Shown here piece by piece: positions 544-36,963 of a stretch of 64,000 nucleotides of DNA. The notes beneath the pieces are model-generated. The model was not told where the DNA came from. It did not search any database and was given only the letters and a program-made list of their open reading frames with translations. Made by a program: the position numbers and the translations under genes. Every line of letters begins with the position of its first letter. Within the stretch, counting starts at the first letter, position 1. The DNA lies in NCBI GenBank assembly GCA_944383015.1, contig CALWOC010000001.1:363976-427975 (forward strand), in the 5' to 3' direction. The stretch comes from an uncultured Clostridia bacterium (lineage in GTDB: Bacteria; Bacillota; Clostridia; TANB77; CAG-465).

Positions 544-1911
544 TTAATAAATCTCTTTTAACTCTTCTATTCTTTTTCTTACCTGTACAGGTGAAGGTCC
601 ACCTATAACGTTTCTATTACTTACACACTTCTCTAAACTTATTTCACTATATATATCATCATTAAAATTATTATCAAAACTTTTATATTGCTCAATTGTC
701 ATTTCATCTAATGTAATATTATTTTCAATACAAAATGATACAATTTGACCAACTATCTTATATGCTTTTCTAAATGGCAATCCTTTTTTCACTAAATAAT
801 CAGCACAATCTGTGGCATTAATAAAACCATTTAATGCTGCCTTTTTCATATTTTCCTTAAATATTTTCATTGTTTTTAATAAAGGTGATAGTGTCTCCAT
901 ACATATTTTTACAGTATCTATACTATCAAAAATTGCCTCTTTATCTTCTTGCATATCCTTATTATATGCAAGAGGTATTCCTTTCATCATTGTCAATAGA
1001 GTAATTAAATCCCCATATACTCTTCCTGTTTTTCCTCTTATAAGTTCTGCAATATCTGGATTTTTCTTTTGTGGCATAATTGAAGATCCAGTTGAAAAGG
1101 CGTCATCTAGCTCTATAAACTTAAATTCCCAAGAACACCACATTATAATCTCTTCACTAATTCTAGATAAATGCATCATTATTATAGAAATATTAGATGC
1201 TAATTCTATAACAAAATCTCTATCTGATACGCCATCTAAGCTATTTTGAGTAACATTATAAAAGCCAAGTTCTTCTTTTACAAATTCTCTGTCTATATTA
1301 TATGTAGTTGTAGCTAAAGCACAACTTCCTAAAGGCATTACATTTGTTCTTTTGTATGTATCTTCTAATCTATTTATATCTCTTATAAACATTTCCACAT
1401 ATGCTAATAAATGATGTGCAAAAGTTATTGGCTGAGCTCTTTGCAAATGTGTATAACCAGGCATAACAGTTTCTACATTTTCTTCTGCCTTTTGTAATAA
1501 TTCTTTTATTAGTCCTTTAAGTAATTTTATTAATGTAGTTATTTCCTCTTTTAAATTCATTCTTAAATCTAATGCTACTTGATCATTTCTACTTCTTGCA
1601 GTATGTAATCTTTTTCCAGTATCTCCTAATCTTTTAGTAAGTTCTGCCTCAACGAACATATGTATGTCTTCTGCTTCTTGATCTATTTTTAATATTCCAT
1701 CATTTATATCATACATTATTTTGTTTAATTCACATACAATTTTTTCTGCCTCAACTTTATCTATTATTCCTTGTTTTGATAACATTTTCGCATGTGCAAT
1801 ACTTCCCTGTATATCTTGTTTATACATTCTAAAGTCAAAACTAATTGAAGAGTTAAAATCATTAGTTTTTGTATCTATATTCTTTTTAAATCTTCCTTCC
1901 CATAAAGGCAT
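544..1911 (-). CDS. argH: argininosuccinate lyase
   Basis: The 455-aa ORF has lyase class I (fumarase/aspartase) family signatures throughout, consistent with argininosuccinate lyase. It lies immediately downstream of argG. Confidence 0.93.
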
Positions 1912-1926
1912 TTAAAATCACTCCTA

Positions 1927-3141
1927 TCATTTTATGTTTAACATTTTTTTAGCTCTAATCTTAGTTGGTAATCCATATAAATTAATAAATCCCTTTGAAT
2001 CCTCATGATTGTATTCTTCTTCTTCATCAAAAGATGCAATTTTCTTTGAATATAATGAATATGGACTATTAACTCCTGCATTAATTATATTTCCTTTATA
2101 TAATTTAAGCTTAACTTGTCCAGTAACATTTTCTTGAGTTTTATCTATAAATGCTGATAAAGCTTCTCTTAATGGTGTAAACCAACAAGCATTATATAAT
2201 AACTCTCCAAATTTCTCAGATACTCCTTGTTTATAATGCATAGTATCTTTATCTAAACATATTGTTTCTAAAATTTCATGTGCTTTATATATAATTGTTC
2301 CTCCAGGTGTTTCATATACACCTCTTGATTTCATTCCAACAAGTCTATTTTCTATCATATCTATAATTCCTATTCCATTTCTTCCACCTATGTCATTAAG
2401 TTTTAATATAATATCTAATACACTCATATTAATCCCATTTAATTCCTTAGGAATTCCTTTTTCAAAATATATATTTACTACCTCTTCTTTATCTGGAGCT
2501 TGCTTTGGACTTACTCCCATCTCAAGAATTTTTTCATATTGTGGTTCATTTTTAATATCTTCTAAATCAAGACCTTCATGTGATAAATGCCATAAATTTT
2601 TGTCCTTTGAATAGTTTGTCTTTCTATTTATAGTAAGAGGTATTCCATGTTTTTCCGCATATTCTATTTCTTTTTCTCTTGTTTTTAATTCCCATGTTCT
2701 CCATGGTACAATTACCTCAATGTCTGGTGCAAAGTTCTTAATTCCAAGTTCAAATCTAACTTGATCATTTCCTTTTCCAGTTGCACCATGACATATTGCA
2801 GTTGCACCTTCCTTACTTGCTATTTCAACTAATTTTTTTGCAATTAATGGTCTTGAAAAAGTAGTTCCTAATAAATATGAATTTTCATATTTTGCATTTG
2901 CTTTAATTGCTGGAACTATATAGTCATTTACTAGTTCATTTTTTAAATCCAATATGTATGCTTTTGACGCCCCAGCTTTTATTGCCTTTTCTTCAAGTCC
3001 AACTAATTCTGACTCTCCTTGTCCTACATCTGCTGTTACTGTTATTATTTCAGCTCCTTTATAGTTTTCTTTTAACCAAGTGATCATTACAGAAGTATCT
3101 AGTCCTCCTGAATAAGATAATACTATTTTTTTGTGTTCCAT
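1927..3141 (-). CDS. argG: argininosuccinate synthase
   Basis: The 404-aa ORF starts [18 protein letters not shown], the PP-loop SGGxDTS motif, and has full-length ArgG similarity. RBS AGAGGAGAA. Confidence 0.93.
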
Positions 3142-3183
3142 TAAAATTCTCCTCTCTTTTTATGTATTTAATTAAAATTAGTA

Positions 3184-3249
3184 TTATCTACGTCTTCGTT
3201 TAGGCCAACCACTATAAAAGAACTGTTTATAACTTGCATTTTCTTTCAT
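3184..3249 (-). CDS. 21-codon mini-ORF ending in four Arg codons (MKENASYKQFFYSGWPKRRRR), between the T-box terminator and argG
   Basis: ATG at 3247-3249 on the minus strand with an AAGGAG RBS at a 7-nt spacing. The last sense codons are CGA AGA CGT AGA, then TAA at 3184-3186. It is too short for the ORF track. Confidence 0.4.
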   Translation of the reverse strand: MKENASYKQFFYSGWPKRRRR

Positions 3250-3289
3250 AATGTTTTCTCCTTTCAAATTCTATATTCAACTAGGGTAC

Positions 3290-3546
3290 AAAAAAGCACC
3301 TCTAGTTATTTCTAGAGGTGCTTTATGCACGGTACCACTCTAGTTGCCTATAAATTATATAGACCACTCATTTACCTGTAACGTAGGCTATACGTACTAT
3401 CATACTTTTACTTTAATAATTTCAGTTCTGATAGTCACTCCTGAGCTCTCTTCACATATCATCCACTGTTTGGCTCACACCACCCCAAATTCGCTTTAGC
3501 TTCATAATATACTACTCTCTCAATCAACGCTTTAATATTAACATGT
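3290..3546 (-). ncRNA. T-box riboswitch leader upstream of argG, including an intrinsic terminator at 3290-3321
   Basis: The minus-strand RNA carries a GAGAGAGUAGU Stem-I base and the T-box core AACUAGAGUGGUACCGUGC. The antiterminator is CUAGAG / UGGUACC bulge / GUGC-AUAAA-GCAC / CUCUAG. The mutually exclusive terminator is GCACCUCUAG-AAAUAA-CUAGAGGUGC followed by U6. Confidence 0.75.
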
Positions 3547-3552
3547 ATAGAT

Positions 3553-3581
3553 ATATTAACATATTTTTAATTAATTGTCAA
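3553..3581 (-). promoter_or_regulatory. sigma-A promoter for the arg T-box leader (TTGACA-17-TAATAT on the minus strand)
   Basis: Minus-strand TTGACA (plus 3576-3581) and TAATAT (plus 3553-3558) with a 17-nt spacer. Confidence 0.5.
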
Positions 3582-3679: not shown

Positions 3680-4066
3680 ATGGAAAAATCATATGAAGTT
3701 GCCGCAAATTGGTGGGCAAAAAGAATTAAAAATTTTAAAAGATTTGACAATGGAGAAAGTGATAAAAATAATTTCCTAGCATCACTATTAGCTACTCAAA
3801 ATGCACTTAACTCTATGCCAAGTGAAGAACAGCTATTAACATTTGAAAAGGCTTTAGCTAAACTAATTAAAGATGAACTTAAATCTAAAGATGAAGTTAT
3901 TGCAAAAGTAGATTATGATCCAAATGAATTACTTTTAAATGCTGCAAAGGAGGCTGGTATAAGTAAAACTGTTTTTCCTTGGAAAACAATTGTTTGGGTT
4001 AAAGATAATAAAGTTACAGTACGTGATGGATATAATGCAAAAGTTGAAATTATATACCAAAAATAA
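3680..4066 (+). CDS. hypothetical protein (128 aa)
   Basis: Clean ORF with a GAGGAGG RBS, followed by a terminator. No motif I recognise. Confidence 0.65.
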   Translation: MEKSYEVAANWWAKRIKNFKRFDNGESDKNNFLASLLATQNALNSMPSEEQLLTFEKALAKLIKDELKSKDEVIAKVDYDPNELLLNAAKEAGISKTVFPWKTIVWVKDNKVTVRDGYNAKVEIIYQK

Positions 4067-9913: not shown

Positions 9914-10046
9914 ATATCTTATCCAGAGTGACTGAGGGACAGGCCCTATGAAGTCCAGCAACCTGCAAAAATGTAAGGTGCTAATTCCTGCGGCATGACC
10001 GAAAGATAAGTTTTCTCGACTAGCTTGCCGTAGCTAGTCTTTTTTT
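9914..10046 (+). ncRNA. SAM-I (S-box) riboswitch with expression-platform terminator (10018-10046)
   Basis: UCUUAUCCAGAGUGACUGAGGGACAGGCCCUAUGAAGUCCAGCAACC...GGUGCUAAUUCCUGCGG...GAAAGAUAAG matches the S-box consensus blocks. The terminator GACTAGCTTGCCGTAGCTAGTC plus T7 follows. It is immediately upstream of metK. Confidence 0.85.
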
Positions 10047-10087
10047 ATACATGCCGATATTTTAATACTATGTTAGGGGGAATATTT

Positions 10088-11245
10088 ATGACAAATTACT
10101 TATTTACTTCTGAATCAGTTACAAGTGGTCACCCAGACAAAGTATGTGATTTTATTTCTGATTCAATACTTGATGCTGCTCTTAAAGAAGATGAGAATTC
10201 AAGAGTAGCATGCGAAACATCTATTTCAAAAGACACAATATTTATCTTTGGAGAAATATCTACAAAAGCAAACTTAGACTATGAAAAAATTGCTAAAGAT
10301 ACTCTAAAAAAAATAGGATATACAACAAAAGGAAGTGGCTTTGATGTAGATAATTGTAAAGTTATTATAGGTATACAAGAACAATCTAGTGATATTGCTC
10401 AAGGTGTAAATTCTTCGTATGATAACAGCAAAACTCTAGGAGCAGGCGATCAGGGAATAATGTTTGGATATGCATGTGATGAAACGGATGAACTAATGCC
10501 ACTACCAATATCACTTGCACACAAATTAGCAAAGAGGTTAGAAGAAACAAGAAATAAAAATATATTAGATTATTTAATGCCAGATGGTAAAACTCAAGTT
10601 ACTGTAGAATATAAAAATAATATACCAGAAAGAATTGATACAATTGTAGTTTCTACTCAACATAAAGATACTATATCTATAGAGAAACTAAGAAAAGATG
10701 TATATGAAAATATAATTTTACCTACAGTACCAAACACTATGCTTGATGATAAGACTAAAATATTTATAAATCCAACTGGTAGATTTGTTATTGGTGGTCC
10801 AGAGAGTGATAGTGGACTTACTGGTAGAAAAATCATAGTTGACACTTATGGTGGTTATGCTCGACATGGTGGCGGAGCTTTTAGTGGAAAAGATCCAACA
10901 AAAGTAGATAGAAGTGCTGCATATATGGCAAGATATGTAGCAAAAAATATTGTAAAAGCAAAACTTGCAAAAAAATGTGAAATTCAATTGTCTTATGCTA
11001 TTGGAGTATCAAAGCCAGTATCAATATATATAAATACATTTAACACCAATACTATACCTGAAGAAAAAATACTTAATATAATAAATACTTTATTTGATTT
11101 TACTCCAGAAGAAATTATTAAAACTTTAAATCTTCGTATGCCTATCTATTCTAATTTATCTCATTATGGTAATATTGGAAGAGAAGACTTAAATGTATCT
11201 TTTGAAAAAACAGATAAAGTTGATGAAATACTAAAATTAGTTTAA
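10088..11245 (+). CDS. metK: S-adenosylmethionine synthetase
   Basis: [18 protein letters not shown]..., [12 protein letters not shown] and [19 protein letters not shown] motifs. The start is at ATG 10088 after a GGGGGA RBS. The 10070 ATG has no RBS. Confidence 0.93.
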
Positions 11246-20704: not shown

Positions 20705-20973
20705 ATAATTAAATTAAATGCAAAGAACAAGAGGAGTAAGATAAAGGTTGTTTTTAGAGAGAAAGATTCATAGGCTGAAAGATCTTTTAAATAAACATAT
20801 CTGAAGGTAGCTTGGGAGCTGGTATACTGAAGTTTTATTATGTGTAAGTATACTCCGTTACAGTCGGTAAATCTGTTAATTAAGTGCATACAAATAGCTT
20901 GTATGAATTAAGGTGGTACCGCGAATCACAGTCATTCGTCCTTAAAATATTAAGGATTAATGACTGTTTTTTT
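20705..20973 (+). ncRNA. T-box riboswitch leader of the (small ORF)-valS operon
   Basis: Near-consensus T-box AATTAAGGTGGTACCGCG at 20916-20933, an AGAGAGA Stem-I element, and the terminator CAGTCATT...AATGACTG plus T7 at 20936-20973. The candidate specifier GUA (Val) lies in GAAGGUAGC at about 20803-20811. Confidence 0.85.
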
Positions 20974-20992
20974 ATGAAAGGAGAAGTATATT

Positions 20993-21190
20993 ATGCTTAG
21001 AGATTTTGGAATATTTATAGCACTCGTCTGTCTTTTAATTGCTGTAATTGTAATATTAAATGCTAGATGGATTATTCATTGTATAGATAATAGTAAAGAT
21101 TTAGAAAATAAAATGGTAGGAAAAATAAAGATAGTCGCAACATTTGTAAGCATGATATCTTTATATATAGTAGCCATTTTAATTAGATAA
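20993..21190 (+). CDS. 65-aa two-helix small membrane protein between the T-box and valS
   Basis: AAAGGAGAAG RBS. Hydrophobic helices IFIALVCLLIAVIVIL and IVATFVSMISLYIVAIL. It ends 16 nt before the valS start. Confidence 0.5.
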   Translation: MLRDFGIFIALVCLLIAVIVILNARWIIHCIDNSKDLENKMVGKIKIVATFVSMISLYIVAILIR

Positions 21191-21206
21191 AAAGGAGAGA
21201 TGAGAA

Positions 21207-23822
21207 ATGGAAAATAACTTTAATTATCAAAAAAGAGAAGAAGAAATATATAAAAATTGGGAAGAAAAAGGCTATTTTAAATGTGAGATAAAAGAAGGTC
21301 AAAAACCTTTTACTATATCAATGCCTCCTCCAAATGTAACTGCTAAGCTTCATATTGGTCACGCACTAGTAAATACAATTCAAGATATTTTTATACGTTA
21401 TCATAGACTAAAGGGAGAACCTACACTTTGGATTCCTGGTACAGACCATGCAAGTATAGCAACAGAAGTAAAAGTTGTTGAAAAAATAAAAAAAGAAGGT
21501 AAAACAAAACAAGAACTTGGTAGAGAAGGATTTTTAAAAGAAGCTTGGGAATGGAAAGAAAAATATGGAGGAGAAATAACAAAACAATTAAGAAAATTAG
21601 GCTGTTCTTGTGACTGGTCTAAAGAAAGATTTACAATGGATCAAGGATGTTCAGATGCAGTTTTAGAAGTATTTGAAAGAATGTATAACAAAGGGCTAAT
21701 ATATAAAGGAAAAAGAATTGTTAACTGGTGTCCTAATTGTAAAACTCCTATATCTGATATAGAAGTAGATTACGAAGAAGTCCCTTCTTCACTTTGGTAT
21801 ATTAAATACCCTATTGAAAATAGTGACGAGTATCTAACAGTTGCTACAACTAGACCTGAAACAATGCTTGGAGACACTGCTGTTGCAGTAGCACCAGATG
21901 ATGAAAGATATACAAAATATGTAGGTAAAAGAGTTTACTTACCAATAGTAGGAAAATATATACCTATCATTGCTGATAGATATGTTGAAAAAGAATTTGG
22001 AACTGGTGTTGTTAAAATGACTCCTGCACATGATCCAAATGACTATAAAGTTGGAGAAAGGCATAACTTAGATATAATTAATATCTTAAATGATGATGCA
22101 ACTTTAAATGAAAACGCTGGCGAATATCAAGGGTTAACTACTCTACAAGCAAGAGAAAAAATAGTTGATAGACTAGATAAAGAAGGATATTTAATAAAAA
22201 TTGAACCATATACTCACAATGTTGGTAGTTGTTATAGATGTCATACAACAATTGAACCTTATATTTCTAACCAATGGTTTGTTCATATGAAAGATTTAGT
22301 TAAGCCAGCAATTGAAGCTGTAAAAAATGATGAAACAATGTTCGTACCAAAAAGATTTGAAAAAATGTATTTTAACTGGATGGAAAACATTGAAGATTGG
22401 TGTATTTCAAGACAGCTATGGTGGGGACATAGAATTCCAGCATATTATTGTGATAAATGCAATAAAATCACAGTTTCAAAAACACCAATAACAACATGTG
22501 AATGCGGTGGACATCTAACACAAGATGAAGATACTTTAGATACATGGTTTTCATCTGCACTATGGCCATTTTCTATACTAGGCTGGCCACAAAAAACTAA
22601 GGAGCTAGAATACTTCTATCCTAACTCAATGCTTGTTACTGGATATGATATTATAACTTTCTGGGTATCAAAAATGATATTTTCTGGAATTGAATATATG
22701 GGAGAAGTTCCATTTAAACATGTATTTATAAATGGACTTGTTAGAGATGCTAAAGGAAGAAAAATGTCTAAATCTTTAGGAAATGGCGTAGATCCATTAG
22801 ATGTTATTAGAGATTACGGAACAGATTCTTTAAGATTATCTTTAATTCAAAATATAACACCAGGTAATGACGTAAGATATATTCCAGAAAAAGTTGAAGC
22901 ATCTAGAAATTTTGCAAATAAATTATGGAATGCTGCAAGATTTGCAAATAACTATTTAAAAGATCTATCTATAGATAAACCAGAAAATTTAATGCCTGAA
23001 GATAAATGGATTTTAACAAAACTTTCTAAAGCTATAAAGGATGTAGAAAGTAATATAGATAAATTTGAAATTGGTGTTGCTGTACAAATAATATATGATT
23101 TTATTTGGAATGATATATGTGATTGGTACATTGAAATGATAAAACCTAGATTATATAATCCAGATAATAAGACATATGAAACAGCTATTTGGACTTTAAA
23201 TTATGTGCTTATTTCTGCAACAAAACTACTTCATCCATATATGCCATTTATTACAGAAGAAGTATATTTAAATTTAAAACATGAAAAAGACTCAATAATG
23301 CTTGAATTACTACCAGAACCAATATACAACTATGAAGAAGAAGAAAAAGTAATCGATTGTATTAATAATATGATAAGACAAATACGTAATACTAGAGCGA
23401 CTATGGATATAACAGGATCTAAAAAAACTTCAGCTCAAATAAATATAAACGACAATTCATTTAAAAATATATTTGATGACTCAGTAGAATATTTCAAAAA
23501 GTTAGCATATATTGAGAATATTGAGTTTATAACTAATATTGAAGATGCTAATCCTAAATATTCTGCACATCATGATGAAAAAATAAATGTATTCTTAAAT
23601 ATGTCTAATGCAATAGATATTAATGCTGAAATTGAAAAATTAGAAAAAGAAAAACAAACAGCTTTATCTGAATTAAAAAGAGCTAATGGTATGCTGGCAA
23701 ATGAAAAATTCGTAAGCAAAGCTCCTGAAAAATTAATAGAAGCGGAAAAAGAGAAAGTTCAAAAATATACAGAATTACTTGAAAAAATTGAAGGCAGATT
23801 AAAAGAACTAACTAATAACTAA
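21207..23822 (+). CDS. valS: valyl-tRNA synthetase
   Basis: HIGH motif (PPNVTAKLHIGHAL), KMSKS, and the C-terminal coiled-coil of ValRS. 871 aa. Confidence 0.95.
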   Translation: MENNFNYQKREEEIYKNWEEKGYFKCEIKEGQKPFTISMPPPNVTAKLHIGHALVNTIQDIFIRYHRLKGEPTLWIPGTDHASIATEVKVVEKIKKEGKTKQELGREGFLKEAWEWKEKYGGEITKQLRKLGCSCDWSKERFTMDQGCSDAVLEVFERMYNKGLIYKGKRIVNWCPNCKTPISDIEVDYEEVPSSLWYIKYPIENSDEYLTVATTRPETMLGDTAVAVAPDDERYTKYVGKRVYLPIVGKYIPIIADRYVEKEFGTGVVKMTPAHDPNDYKVGERHNLDIINILNDDATLNENAGEYQGLTTLQAREKIVDRLDKEGYLIKIEPYTHNVGSCYRCHTTIEPYISNQWFVHMKDLVKPAIEAVKNDETMFVPKRFEKMYFNWMENIEDWCISRQLWWGHRIPAYYCDKCNKITVSKTPITTCECGGHLTQDEDTLDTWFSSALWPFSILGWPQKTKELEYFYPNSMLVTGYDIITFWVSKMIFSGIEYMGEVPFKHVFINGLVRDAKGRKMSKSLGNGVDPLDVIRDYGTDSLRLSLIQNITPGNDVRYIPEKVEASRNFANKLWNAARFANNYLKDLSIDKPENLMPEDKWILTKLSKAIKDVESNIDKFEIGVAVQIIYDFIWNDICDWYIEMIKPRLYNPDNKTYETAIWTLNYVLISATKLLHPYMPFITEEVYLNLKHEKDSIMLELLPEPIYNYEEEEKVIDCINNMIRQIRNTRATMDITGSKKTSAQININDNSFKNIFDDSVEYFKKLAYIENIEFITNIEDANPKYSAHHDEKINVFLNMSNAIDINAEIEKLEKEKQTALSELKRANGMLANEKFVSKAPEKLIEAEKEKVQKYTELLEKIEGRLKELTNN

Positions 23823-35091: not shown

Positions 35092-35422
35092 TAATTTAAA
35101 ATATCTTTCACATCTACTTAGTATGTGTTACAATATAAATGATATTAAAGAAGTAATAAGATATAAATAATAACATATTAAAAAATGAAGCTTTAAAACC
35201 AACAATATATATAATAGAAGAACTAGTCAGTGAAAAAAATAATTCACAATCATATGTGGAAATTAATAATCTAATAGAATATATATATCAAAAATTTATA
35301 TTTAAAAACTATAATATAAATTTAGATATTGCTTCACCTTTTAGTGCTACAAAAGTATATTCAAACAATGACAAAACTTTGTTTGAATATATGTTAATGT
35401 TAAACGATAAAAATAATACAAT

Positions 35423-35465
35423 TAATATTAATAAATATTAATAAATATTAATAAATGTTAATTAA
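35423..35465. repeat. short tandem repeat, about 4 copies of a 10-mer (ATAAATATTA)
   Basis: ATTAATATTA ATAAATATTA ATAAATATTA ATAAATGTTA in a non-coding AT-rich stretch. Confidence 0.5.
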
Positions 35466-35675
35466 ATGATATTAAATACTTATCTTCTATAATAAAGAGC
35501 ATATACAAATAATTATGGTAAATTTATTTAATTTTTTATTAAAATAAACAAAAATTAAATATAATATCTATTTTAACTTAATTTAACTATACTGTAAAAT
35601 AATAATGTTTATAAAGATAAATATGTATAAAAAAACCATTTTGAATTTAACTTCAAAATGGTTCAATTTTACATT

Positions 35676-36143
35676 TTATTCTAATAAAGTTATTCCTTCT
35701 CCATTACGCTCAAAATTAATTTTTCCATCTTCATAATATAATTTATATTCTTGAGTATGTTTCATATAACCTATATCATCTTGAATAATTTCTATTGATA
35801 TAGTATGAGTTTCCTCTAAATACTTCGTATATATAGTATATGTAATTTCCTTATCTTCATCTATTTTTTCAATATTTTTTAATTTTAAAGAATTTGATTC
35901 AGAAAATTCTTCATTTGTTATAATATTTTTTAAAGCTGATGTATCTAAAGATATATTCCCATCATTAGTATTTATTGTAGTTAATACATCTTTATATATA
36001 TTACTTAAAACAGCTATTTGAACATTCTCATTTTTAATTAATTTATCATAGTTATTAGTACCAAATATAAAAATCATAGCTAATACTAAAGCAATGATTA
36101 TAATTAAAATTATTATACTAATTGGAATCAGTTTTGATTTCAT
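35676..36143 (-). CDS. N-terminally membrane-anchored small protein, tandem paralog 1
   Basis: A TM helix followed by an about 120-aa domain. It shares LKNI/KNIEKI/GKINFE-type motifs with 36520-36963. Confidence 0.55.
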   Translation of the reverse strand: MKSKLIPISIIILIIIIALVLAMIFIFGTNNYDKLIKNENVQIAVLSNIYKDVLTTINTNDGNISLDTSALKNIITNEEFSESNSLKLKNIEKIDEDKEITYTIYTKYLEETHTISIEIIQDDIGYMKHTQEYKLYYEDGKINFERNGEGITLLE

Positions 36144-36519
36144 AATATCACTCCCATTTAAAGTATATATTATTAAATATTAATTATCAATAGTTTCAAA
36201 AAATAATATAAAATATTTTAACTTAGCGATAAATCATACTTGTTCTTATAGTCCTCAAGAAGACTTTAAATATTTGGTATATAATGATTTAATATCATTT
36301 ACATCTGAACTTGATATATTATCAATACTGTATAATATCTATACATTACATTAGAAGAGTTGTTATTGTTAGCTAATCCTAGTGCAAGTCCAATCTTATG
36401 CATAAATACAGCCTTTAAGTTATAGTAGTGGTAGAACCATTATTAAATGAAAGATTTGAATTTAAAGTAATAACAGCGTTATTTATAGTATTTACTGAAT
36501 GATATAATATAAAAGTCAG

Positions 36520-36963
36520 TTATGAAACTACTATTAGTCCATTGTCATATTTTTCATAATTAATTTTACCATTTTTAATTTTTAAAATATATTTTTGTTT
36601 TACCATATTTCCAAAATTGTCAGAAAGAACTAATTCTACGATTTTTTTTTCTGAATTATACTTCAATGACAATATATAATTCGATTCTGAATCGGCACGA
36701 TTTATTTCTATATTTCTTAATTTAAATATTGAACTATCATCAAAGTATTCTTTTGTGACTAAGTTTTTAATAGTTGAATCGTCTAATAAAATGTTAGAAT
36801 TTTTTATACTTGATTCCAAAATGAATTCTGTATACATCTTACTTAAAACTTCAACTTGATTTTGATTATTAATAAAAACTTTTTTATTTGAATTAAAAAT
36901 TAATAGTATAATTAAAAAGAATACTATTAAAATAGTTATAAAAACTATTATTATTTTTTTCAT
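36520..36963 (-). CDS. N-terminally membrane-anchored small protein, tandem paralog 2
   Basis: Same architecture and shared motifs (IKNLVTKEYF, NIEINR, GKINYEKYDNG). Confidence 0.55.
   Translation of the reverse strand: MKKIIIVFITILIVFFLIILLIFNSNKKVFINNQNQVEVLSKMYTEFILESSIKNSNILLDDSTIKNLVTKEYFDDSSIFKLRNIEINRADSESNYILSLKYNSEKKIVELVLSDNFGNMVKQKYILKIKNGKINYEKYDNGLIVVS

Follow-up and report, generated by a model that had tools for sequence, protein, structure and literature searches.

The argininosuccinate synthase and lyase genes (argG-argH) of an uncultured Clostridia bacterium are preceded by a leader in which a T-box riboswitch with an arginine (Arg) specifier is followed, downstream of its terminator, by a conserved open reading frame (ORF) of 21 codons. 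The leader lies on the minus strand of the 64,000-nucleotide (nt) stretch of DNA analysed here, which we call the window (GenBank assembly GCA_944383015.1, contig CALWOC010000001.1, positions 363,976 to 427,975 of the forward strand; GC content 26.6%); its features are collected in Table 1. On the sequence evidence the leader almost certainly carries a full T-box with the Arg codon AGA as specifier, and the upstream ORF (uORF; hereafter the mini-ORF) is very probably a conserved, translated element linked to that T-box. Our preferred reading, to which we give roughly an even chance (about 0.5), is that the mini-ORF is an arrest-type translational sensor of arginine or Arg-tRNA placed in series with the T-box. 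An earlier note on this DNA had proposed a two-layer tRNA and translation sensor at this site; the Arg T-box and a conserved, apparently translated mini-ORF bear this out, while arginine sensing by the mini-ORF is something that we infer.

The mini-ORF is present in 22 distinct DNA versions, each of them 3' of a T-box terminator, and is also kept in database peptides (P0001-P0016). Among loci anchored on ArgG and drawn from species-representative genomes, an ORF preceded by a Shine-Dalgarno (SD) sequence occupies the slot after the terminator in L001-L007, L010, L011, L015, L016 and L049. A scan of metagenomes with a degenerate pattern of the core gave 18 hits, ten of them genuine; the remaining eight, located inside coding regions of GC-richer contigs, were discarded as chance. 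Profile searching of a protein collection returned 15 peptides of 24-70 amino acids (aa). For one version (P0002) a public assembly collection has 378 blocks, and in all five of the loci shown for it the ORF stands directly before argG-argH, as divergent versions likewise stand upstream of these genes. A full Arg T-box precedes every copy that has enough upstream sequence. The genes downstream of the T-box in relatives are either argG-argH or an ABC transporter of the Lys/Arg/Orn type with its substrate-binding protein first (L005 has such a transporter, then argG-argH), and the same two kinds account for the readable downstream gene of every mini-ORF copy except that in L108, where argH follows and no argG gene is called in between. 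The closest ArgG relatives, which are 73-90% identical, come from metagenome-assembled genomes of uncultured Clostridia, including Candidatus Scatovivens. The conservation in homologous argG leaders that the earlier note had looked to as support is therefore found.

The distribution bears directly on the simplest alternative, namely that the mini-ORF is a functionless chance ORF in an AT-rich spacer. Short ORFs are common at the GC content of this genome region, and the window by itself would leave chance open; the core DNA pattern, however, has one match in the window against 0.00 expected, and the ORF is conserved across leaders whose ArgG proteins have diverged to the extent given above and which serve two operon types. 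The conservation data contradict this explanation, and on these sequences we regard it as refuted.

The variation among versions is that of a coding sequence. Between the ATG and the AGA codon the mini-ORF frame stays open in all 22 versions, and neither alternative frame does so in any of them; the length N-terminal to the core changes by whole codons (8, 9 or 10). The ATG columns are invariant throughout, and a purine-rich, SD-like block always lies ahead of them. Column entropy summed over the core is 3.19 and 4.68 at the first and second codon positions and 8.97 at the third; at Gly14 all four codons are used on two constant first bases. RNAalifold finds 0 conserved base pairs over the mini-ORF region of the versions, a hairpin of the window that joins the start-codon region to the Phe-Phe-Tyr (F-F-Y) codons (ViennaRNA) is equalled by 95 of 500 column shuffles, and an Rfam search of positions 3120-3320 at permissive thresholds returned only noise and no family. 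Because this is the sole open frame, its indels are whole codons, its variation is concentrated at third positions and no pairs are conserved, coding is favoured over an RNA element.

It could nevertheless be argued that what is conserved here is an element of the RNA or the DNA (a protein- or metabolite-binding RNA, an ArgR operator or a degenerate second T-box discriminator) to which the ORF is incidental. Across all versions the codons TAT-AGT and CGA-AGA show no synonymous variation, and TTC makes up 68% of Phe codons in the mini-ORF versions versus 9% in window genes; these codon-level constraints exceed what peptide conservation alone explains. Relatives also hold a second, Stem-I-less discriminator module in the slot of the mini-ORF, and UAUAGUGGU bears, by eye, a loose likeness to the junction between Stem III and the T-box sequence. 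Against this stand the single open frame with its whole-codon indels, the wobble at third positions, an SD and ATG that are always present, and the want of conserved pairs or an Rfam match. As ARG-boxes are, moreover, not enriched and the leader has no convincing site (see below), we think an RNA or DNA element quite unlikely, although slightly less so than the trans-acting peptide considered below.

At the protein level the consensus is M-K-E-x-x-x-Y-K-K-[F/Y]-[F/A/C]-Y-S-G-W-x-[K/R]-[R/L/I]-R, after which Q, R, C, W or a stop follows. Ser, Gly, Trp and the final Arg (R19) are invariant in the DNA-derived set. The codon for R19 is always AGA, the same as the T-box specifier codon, and wherever position 18 is Arg it is encoded by CGA, which makes up 2.7% of Arg codons in window genes (AGA makes up 81.6%). 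Beyond R19 conservation stops: relatives extend by 0-23 codons with unrelated tails, and their stop codons range in position from -14 nt, within the gene that follows, to +69 nt ahead of its ATG. The four Arg codons at the end of the window's mini-ORF (CGA AGA CGT AGA), which had drawn the attention of the earlier note, are present as it described, but they do not hold as a conserved property, since of these four Arg positions only the first two are conserved, AGA19 alone is invariant and the RRRR-stop tail is confined to the window and L001. What is conserved is the peptide core Y-K-K-F-F-Y-S-G-W-x-K-R-R, which the earlier note had passed over. L003 and P0002 read RRRNNTINYQILK followed by a stop and, by eye, differ from the window tail by a 1-nt indel.

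Nothing in wider collections suggests a longer homologue. When 1.84 billion cluster representatives were searched exhaustively with a profile, only 10 hits came back, all of them short peptides of the mini-ORF kind, and the peptide had 0 hits in NCBIfam and 0 among PDB chains, where no solved nascent chain resembles it; as judged from these searches, the mini-ORF is no fragment of a larger protein family. A plasmid collection contained no similar DNA. These results also bear on the possibility that the product is a trans-acting small basic peptide (with ArgG or the transporter as a possible target) whose ORF merely shares the transcript. Such a peptide would be expected to have a conserved amino-acid sequence and good initiation signals, both of which are seen, and gene callers do predict a protein of 24-70 aa in public assemblies. 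Conservation that ends at residue 19, followed by a C-terminus of 0 to more than 20 unrelated residues, would however be unusual for a folded or binding peptide. The mini-ORF accompanies the T-box leader ahead of two unrelated operon types, and it is absent from the close relatives L008 and L009, which keep argGH. Together with the failure to find any longer homologue, this makes a trans-acting peptide very unlikely.

A separate observation concerns the core N-Y-K-K-F-F-Y-S-G-W, which resembles the ArgG N-terminus N-Y-K-K-I-V-L-A-Y-S-G-G of several relatives (in the window, 3193-3231 versus 3141-3100, minus strand). The resemblance could hint at a partial duplication. An origin of the mini-ORF by duplication of the argG 5' end was rejected as not significant when NYKKIVLAYSGG was compared with NYKKFFYSGW (shuffles gave p = 0.02-0.5, depending on the pair).

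The T-box to which the mini-ORF is linked matches RF00230 over model positions 1-219 of 219, and scores 117.7 bits where the gathering threshold is 93 (E = 2.1e-25). The sigma-A promoter that the earlier note had described was located as TTGACA-17 nt-TAATAT with TG; its hexamers have 10 of 12 matches plus the TG extension, and the T-box model begins about 17 nt downstream of it. Folding likewise reproduced the antiterminator and the terminator at the places described. The terminator folds at -21.3 kcal/mol (z = -4.94), a stability reached by 0 of 200 shuffles; a terminator scan program did not flag it, and it was confirmed by folding instead. The two structures are mutually exclusive, GCACCUCUAG being common to both. 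The 21-codon ORF with its strong ribosome-binding site, too, was found after the terminator as the earlier note had reported. The tRNA-Arg(UCU) and tRNA-Arg(ACG) of the relative L004 both end in A73-CCA, which fits the UGGU bulge; the fit was judged on L004, as the tRNA-Arg genes of the host lie outside the window.

Assignment of the specifier follows from the covariance-model alignment, in which the eight unpaired positions of the specifier loop (3453..3446) align to G-A-A-G-A-G-A-G. Specifier-loop codon and following purine thus match the regulated genes, AGA for argG-argH. The CGA within AAGCGAA (3491-3497), put forward earlier as a candidate, aligns to the AG bulge of Stem I, which reads AGCGA in nearly all relatives, and the true specifier is the AGA at 3449..3447; the earlier note had thus reached the right amino acid by luck, from the wrong nucleotides. 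In 31 related leaders, all of them T-boxes on argG or the ABC transporter, the specifier column is AGA in 25, AGG in two and CGU or CGC in four, the last all from an Erysipelotrichaceae-like group. Since the same column is an Arg codon in 31 of 31, the specifier amino acid is secure, and a Stem-I alignment of the kind the earlier note had called for places it on Arg and on no other amino acid.

How the two layers might work together can be outlined as follows. The specifier AGA would read the anticodon of tRNA-Arg(UCU); this tRNA, when uncharged, would stabilise the antiterminator through pairing of UGGU with ACCA, and RNA polymerase would pass the 13-bp terminator. Read-through transcripts would carry the strongly initiated mini-ORF, on which the ribosome may pause or arrest while residue 18 occupies the P site and the A site requires Arg-tRNA(UCU). 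Given the aromatic nascent chain and the basic-X-basic ending, this step would proceed slowly and hinge on the supply of Arg-tRNA. Paused or queued ribosomes might then raise expression of the downstream genes, which is the least supported step of the scheme: in several relatives the route would be the unmasking of a downstream SD that is paired with the F-F-Y codons, and in the window, for which such pairing is not predicted, an output independent of geometry would be needed, such as shielding of the mRNA or the prevention of premature termination.

The anatomy of an arrest sequence is suggested by the roughly 13 conserved residues that end abruptly at R19, with tail and stop free to vary, and that would occupy the upper part of the exit tunnel; Y7 to R19 corresponds to the conserved segment of about 10-17 residues, ending at one codon, that arrest peptides have. 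The ending [KR]-[RLI]-R is a +X+ motif, a motif that hampers peptide-bond formation in macrolide-bound ribosomes (PMC8298421, PMC12583479). We can only tentatively propose, from sequence comparison, that the mini-ORF acts through arrest assisted by its nascent peptide. The same caution applies to a possible new class of arrest peptide with the core F-F-Y-S-G-W-x-(K/R)-X-R, in which the aromatic chain would take the macrolide's role and bond formation with Arg-tRNA(UCU) would be rate-limiting.

The output step is best illustrated by L006, L016 and L093, in which the F-F-Y codons (UUCUUCUAUA) and the SD region further downstream (UAUAGGAGGA) have complementary sequences. Here the predicted probability that the SD is unpaired is 0.01-0.03, and it rises to 0.42-0.84 with a ribosome covering the F-F-Y codons, modelled either as a stalled ribosome with its 5' edge at -15 to -18 nt or as a queued second ribosome. 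Unmasking is partial in five further loci. We rejected such an anti-SD arrangement as a general model, given that it holds in some relatives whereas in the window the duplex is at the control mean and the SD open, and kept it as a partial mechanism. Nor can blockade of the SD from the stop codon, as in the rtpLP leader peptide of Bacillus subtilis, be general, since the stop position is not conserved.

Several observations weigh against an arrest-type sensor. The SD of argG in the window is predicted to be accessible (0.81-0.86) in every modelled state, and pairing between the F-F-Y codons and this SD (-6.4 kcal/mol) is that of the control mean (-6.44 kcal/mol, 47 other SD regions). The distance from the stop to the downstream SD is not conserved. 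Position 18 may be Leu or Ile, which leaves one invariant Arg codon, a thin basis for a pure hungry-codon sensor. Some closely related Arg T-box leaders (L008, L009, L035 and L039) are without a mini-ORF, so that it is dispensable, and the 22 versions are phylogenetically related, so that counts of them overstate their independence. Finally, we infer both translation and pausing of the mini-ORF from sequence, and regulation could run in either direction.

A pure hungry-codon leader, in which the Arg codons alone sense Arg-tRNA and the peptide sequence is irrelevant (in the style of the his, trp and leu leaders or of rtpLP), also has evidence in its favour. The Arg codons sit 3' of an Arg T-box, an Arg at position 18 is always encoded by the rare CGA, and rtpLP offers a precedent. 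Further evidence comes from the Erysipelotrichaceae-like argG leaders with CGU-specifier T-boxes: three of six carry unrelated, SD-preceded short ORFs directly after the terminator, all with CGA-CGA (MKSRRRKHIET, MSEDRRCLL... and MEGRRCKL... in L041, at about 1053-1088, L055 and L073), and this independent design supports a role for the Arg codons; the sister leaders L013, L028 and L029 are without such ORFs. However, over 13 residues it is the peptide sequence that is conserved while codons change synonymously, for which a leader of this type has no need, and a single Arg codon is invariant, Leu or Ile being allowed at position 18. There is also neither a terminator nor an antiterminator after the mini-ORF, and the distance from stop to SD is variable. 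We therefore consider a pure hungry-codon leader rather unlikely, though the least so of the alternatives to an arrest-type sensor.

The sign of regulation might also be the reverse, with the mini-ORF a brake: a peptide sensing free arginine would, at high arginine, stall the ribosome and lower expression from leaked transcripts. Sensing of free amino acids within the ribosome is known from TnaC, SpeFL and the fungal arginine attenuator peptide; a conserved nascent-chain core ending at a defined site is what a brake would require, and the mini-ORF is dedicated to genes of arginine synthesis or uptake. A ribosome stalled 40-90 nt from the downstream SD, on the other hand, cannot block that SD sterically, and where pairing is predicted stalling would expose the SD rather than hide it. 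As the core has no sequence similarity to any solved nascent chain either, a brake is unlikely, and a little more so than the hungry-codon leader.

Classical regulation of arginine genes leaves little trace in the leader. An ARG-box consensus scan of the window gave 178 hits versus 210 expected and thus no enrichment, and the sole hit in the leader (3166-3183) has three mismatches, which is chance level; tandem 18-bp boxes were not found. An ArgR operator over the start of the mini-ORF was considered because ATGAAAGAAAATGCAAGT resembles the Bacillus consensus by eye, and was rejected, as this stretch is unconserved in relatives and the scan shows no enrichment. The best ARG-box-like matches of the window, each with one mismatch, lie elsewhere, at 35640-35657 and 36650-36667, in an AT-rich region (35400-36900) with repeated near-palindromes TATTAATAAATATTAATA. 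For attenuation of the his/trp/leu type, a scan found no terminator-like site after the mini-ORF, although the same scan missed the T-box terminator. The region from the mini-ORF to argG appears unstructured (fold z = +1.35) and has no conserved pairs.

Downstream, the mini-ORF stop is followed after 42 nt by the argG ATG; the earlier note had correctly placed the mini-ORF upstream of argG but at a distance of 40 nt. Spacing between argG and argH is 15 nt. Divergent from argG, and adjoining its promoter, is an ORF of 128 aa (3680-4066, plus strand) with no NCBIfam match.

Table 1. Features of the argG-argH leader and operon in window coordinates
Feature	Position	Strand	Description
SigA-type promoter, TG-extended	3553..3581	-	-35 TTGACA 3581..3576; 17-nt spacer; -10 TAATAT 3558..3553
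T-box leader RNA, RF00230	3311..3536	-	Stem I (K-turn, specifier loop, AG bulge, distal loop), Stem II/IIA-B, Stem III, antiterminator
AG bulge of Stem I	3491..3497	-	AGCGA variant of AGAGA; aligns to model positions 44-48
Specifier AGA (Arg)	3447..3449	-	covariance-model alignment, model positions 87-94; flanked 5' by GAA-G and 3' by the purine G3446
Antiterminator	3312..3343	-	CUAGAG / UGGUACC / GUGC-AUAAA-GCAC / CUCUAG; fold -9.4 kcal/mol
T-box bulge UGGUACC	3331..3337	-	inside the antiterminator; UGGU complementary to the 3'-terminal ACCA of tRNA-Arg
Intrinsic terminator	3290..3324	-	13-bp stem AAAGCACCUCUAG / CUAGAGGUGCUUU, loop AAAUAA, U6 tract; from folding
Mini-ORF SD	3258..3264	-	AAAGGAG, 8 nt before the ATG
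Mini-ORF (uORF)	3184..3249	-	21 codons + stop, MKENASYKQFFYSGWPKRRRR then stop; ATG 3249, TAA 3186-3184
Mini-ORF core, codons 7-19	3193..3231	-	Y-K-Q-F-F-Y-S-G-W-P-K-R-R; ends CGA 3198..3196, AGA 3195..3193
Non-conserved tail	3184..3192	-	CGT AGA TAA; gives the RRRR-stop look of the window
argG SD	7 nt before argG ATG	-	GAGAGGAG
argG	1927..3141	-	argininosuccinate synthase, 404 aa; NF001770, 591 bits vs cut-off 334
argH	544..1911	-	argininosuccinate lyase, 455 aa; TIGR00838, 664 bits vs cut-off 279.5

Related leaders and the rest of the window contain further riboswitches that deserve mention in their own right. A second, Stem-I-less antiterminator/terminator module lies about 110 nt after the first in L007, L008, L009, L011, L015, L082, L092 and L095-L097; that of L008 (990-1100) matches T-box model positions 108-219 with 25 bits. 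In L008 and L009 the second module occurs without a uORF, in the window the uORF occurs without a second module, and several loci have both. At 1177-2197 of L004, another, almost identical Arg (AGA) T-box controls an ORF for a GNAT-type acetyltransferase (1455-2006), which is followed by the genes for tRNA-Arg(ACG) and tRNA-Arg(UCU), exactly the decoders of the CGA-AGA of the mini-ORF; this unit stands immediately upstream of the one comprising T-box, uORF and argG. The window itself has a second T-box (129.7 bits) on the plus strand with the specifier loop GAA-G-GUA-G (Val), followed by an SD-preceded hydrophobic ORF of 64 codons (20994-21189), which looks like a membrane peptide, and then by valS (21207-23822), the whole unit spanning 20714-23822. 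Here, too, a small ORF separates a T-box terminator from the regulated gene. An ordinary SAM-I riboswitch (83.5 bits) is found directly upstream of metK, the two together spanning 9916-11245 of the plus strand.

The T-box layer of this arrangement has close counterparts. Arg T-box leaders of such genes were reportedly described by Vitreschak et al. as early as 2008. The earlier note had taken a T-box on argGH as a departure from the ArgR/AhrC rule, but Arg T-boxes on argG and argH are already catalogued, the regulon comprising argG, argCJBDF, argH and artPQM in C. difficile 630, argG, argF, argCJBD and artPQM in C. bartlettii, and argG and artPQM in C. hiranonis (Sun et al. 2013, BMC Genomics 14:597, Additional file 2). 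The Arg T-boxes of Peptostreptococcaceae resemble that of the window in their membership of RF00230, their Arg specificity and their targets, argG(H) and a polar-amino-acid ABC transporter; the difference is that the window comes from another, uncultured and very AT-rich lineage of gut Clostridia. In the literature we found no uORF reported for the Peptostreptococcaceae leaders. The Arg T-box layer is thus already known, and the conserved mini-ORF layer is the new part.

To our knowledge, only one tandem of a T-box and a leader peptide has been characterised, namely rtpLP of B. subtilis, which responds to tryptophan, and for arginine biosynthesis no dedicated bacterial leader peptide with a conserved sequence is known to us. 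The rtpLP leader works through a stop codon adjoining the SD of rtpA. This anti-TRAP leader, a Trp T-box plus rtpLP with its three Trp codons, is the nearest architectural precedent: in both cases a T-box is followed by a short translated ORF with codons for the same amino acid, so that the charging of one tRNA would be read twice, and in the window the cognate codon 3' of the terminator, AGA, is identical to the specifier. The combination of a T-box with tRNA-dependent ribosome stalling in the leader peptide of rtpA is summarised in PMC10327191, which cites Chen & Yanofsky (2003 Science, 2004 Mol Cell). The differences are nonetheless substantial. The stop of the window's mini-ORF is 42 nt before the argG ATG, and the stop position varies among relatives (-14 to +69 nt), so that a stop next to the SD is no feature of this leader; rtpLP needs Trp codons only, whereas the mini-ORF keeps a 13-residue core with one invariant Arg codon; and both the amino acid and the target genes are others.

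With arrest peptides and erm-type attenuation (ErmDL, ErmCL and ErmBL, TnaC, SpeFL, and SecM, MifM and CliM) the mini-ORF shares a short uORF with a conserved segment that ends at a defined codon. Its basic-X-basic ending is like the +X+ arrest motif (PMC8298421, PMC12583479), and in some relatives the SD is predicted to be paired with uORF codons and freed by a stalled ribosome. Stabilisation of mRNA by a stalled ribosome is, according to PMC9178857, a known second output. In contrast to these peptides, the mini-ORF has no sequence similarity to known ones, no drug is involved, its targets are arginine genes, the window lacks an SD-masking helix, and arrest is here a prediction.

Other uORFs respond to arginine without being joined to a T-box. 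The fungal arginine attenuator peptide is one such uORF, and in the Salmonella speF leader translation of the Arg-codon uORF orf34 (SpeFL) responds to arginine or Arg-tRNA (PMC6386406). Both differ from the mini-ORF in that their sequences are unrelated to it and that they belong to other organisms and outputs. A literature search for an arginine leader or arrest peptide tied to argG or to a T-box returned nothing that matched. If the mini-ORF does encode a new class of arrest peptide in series with the T-box, the ribosome itself would report arginine supply, and arginine synthesis through argGH and uptake through an artPQM-like transporter would be gated twice by one tRNA species in abundant gut Clostridia. 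The system is compact (about 70 nt), occurs in widespread uncultured members of this group, and is either missed by gene callers or labelled as a hypothetical protein. Should the core prove to cause arrest, the few known amino-acid-responsive peptides of this kind (TnaC, SpeFL) would gain a further member, and the +X+ problem at the peptidyl-transferase centre would have a case that involves no drug.

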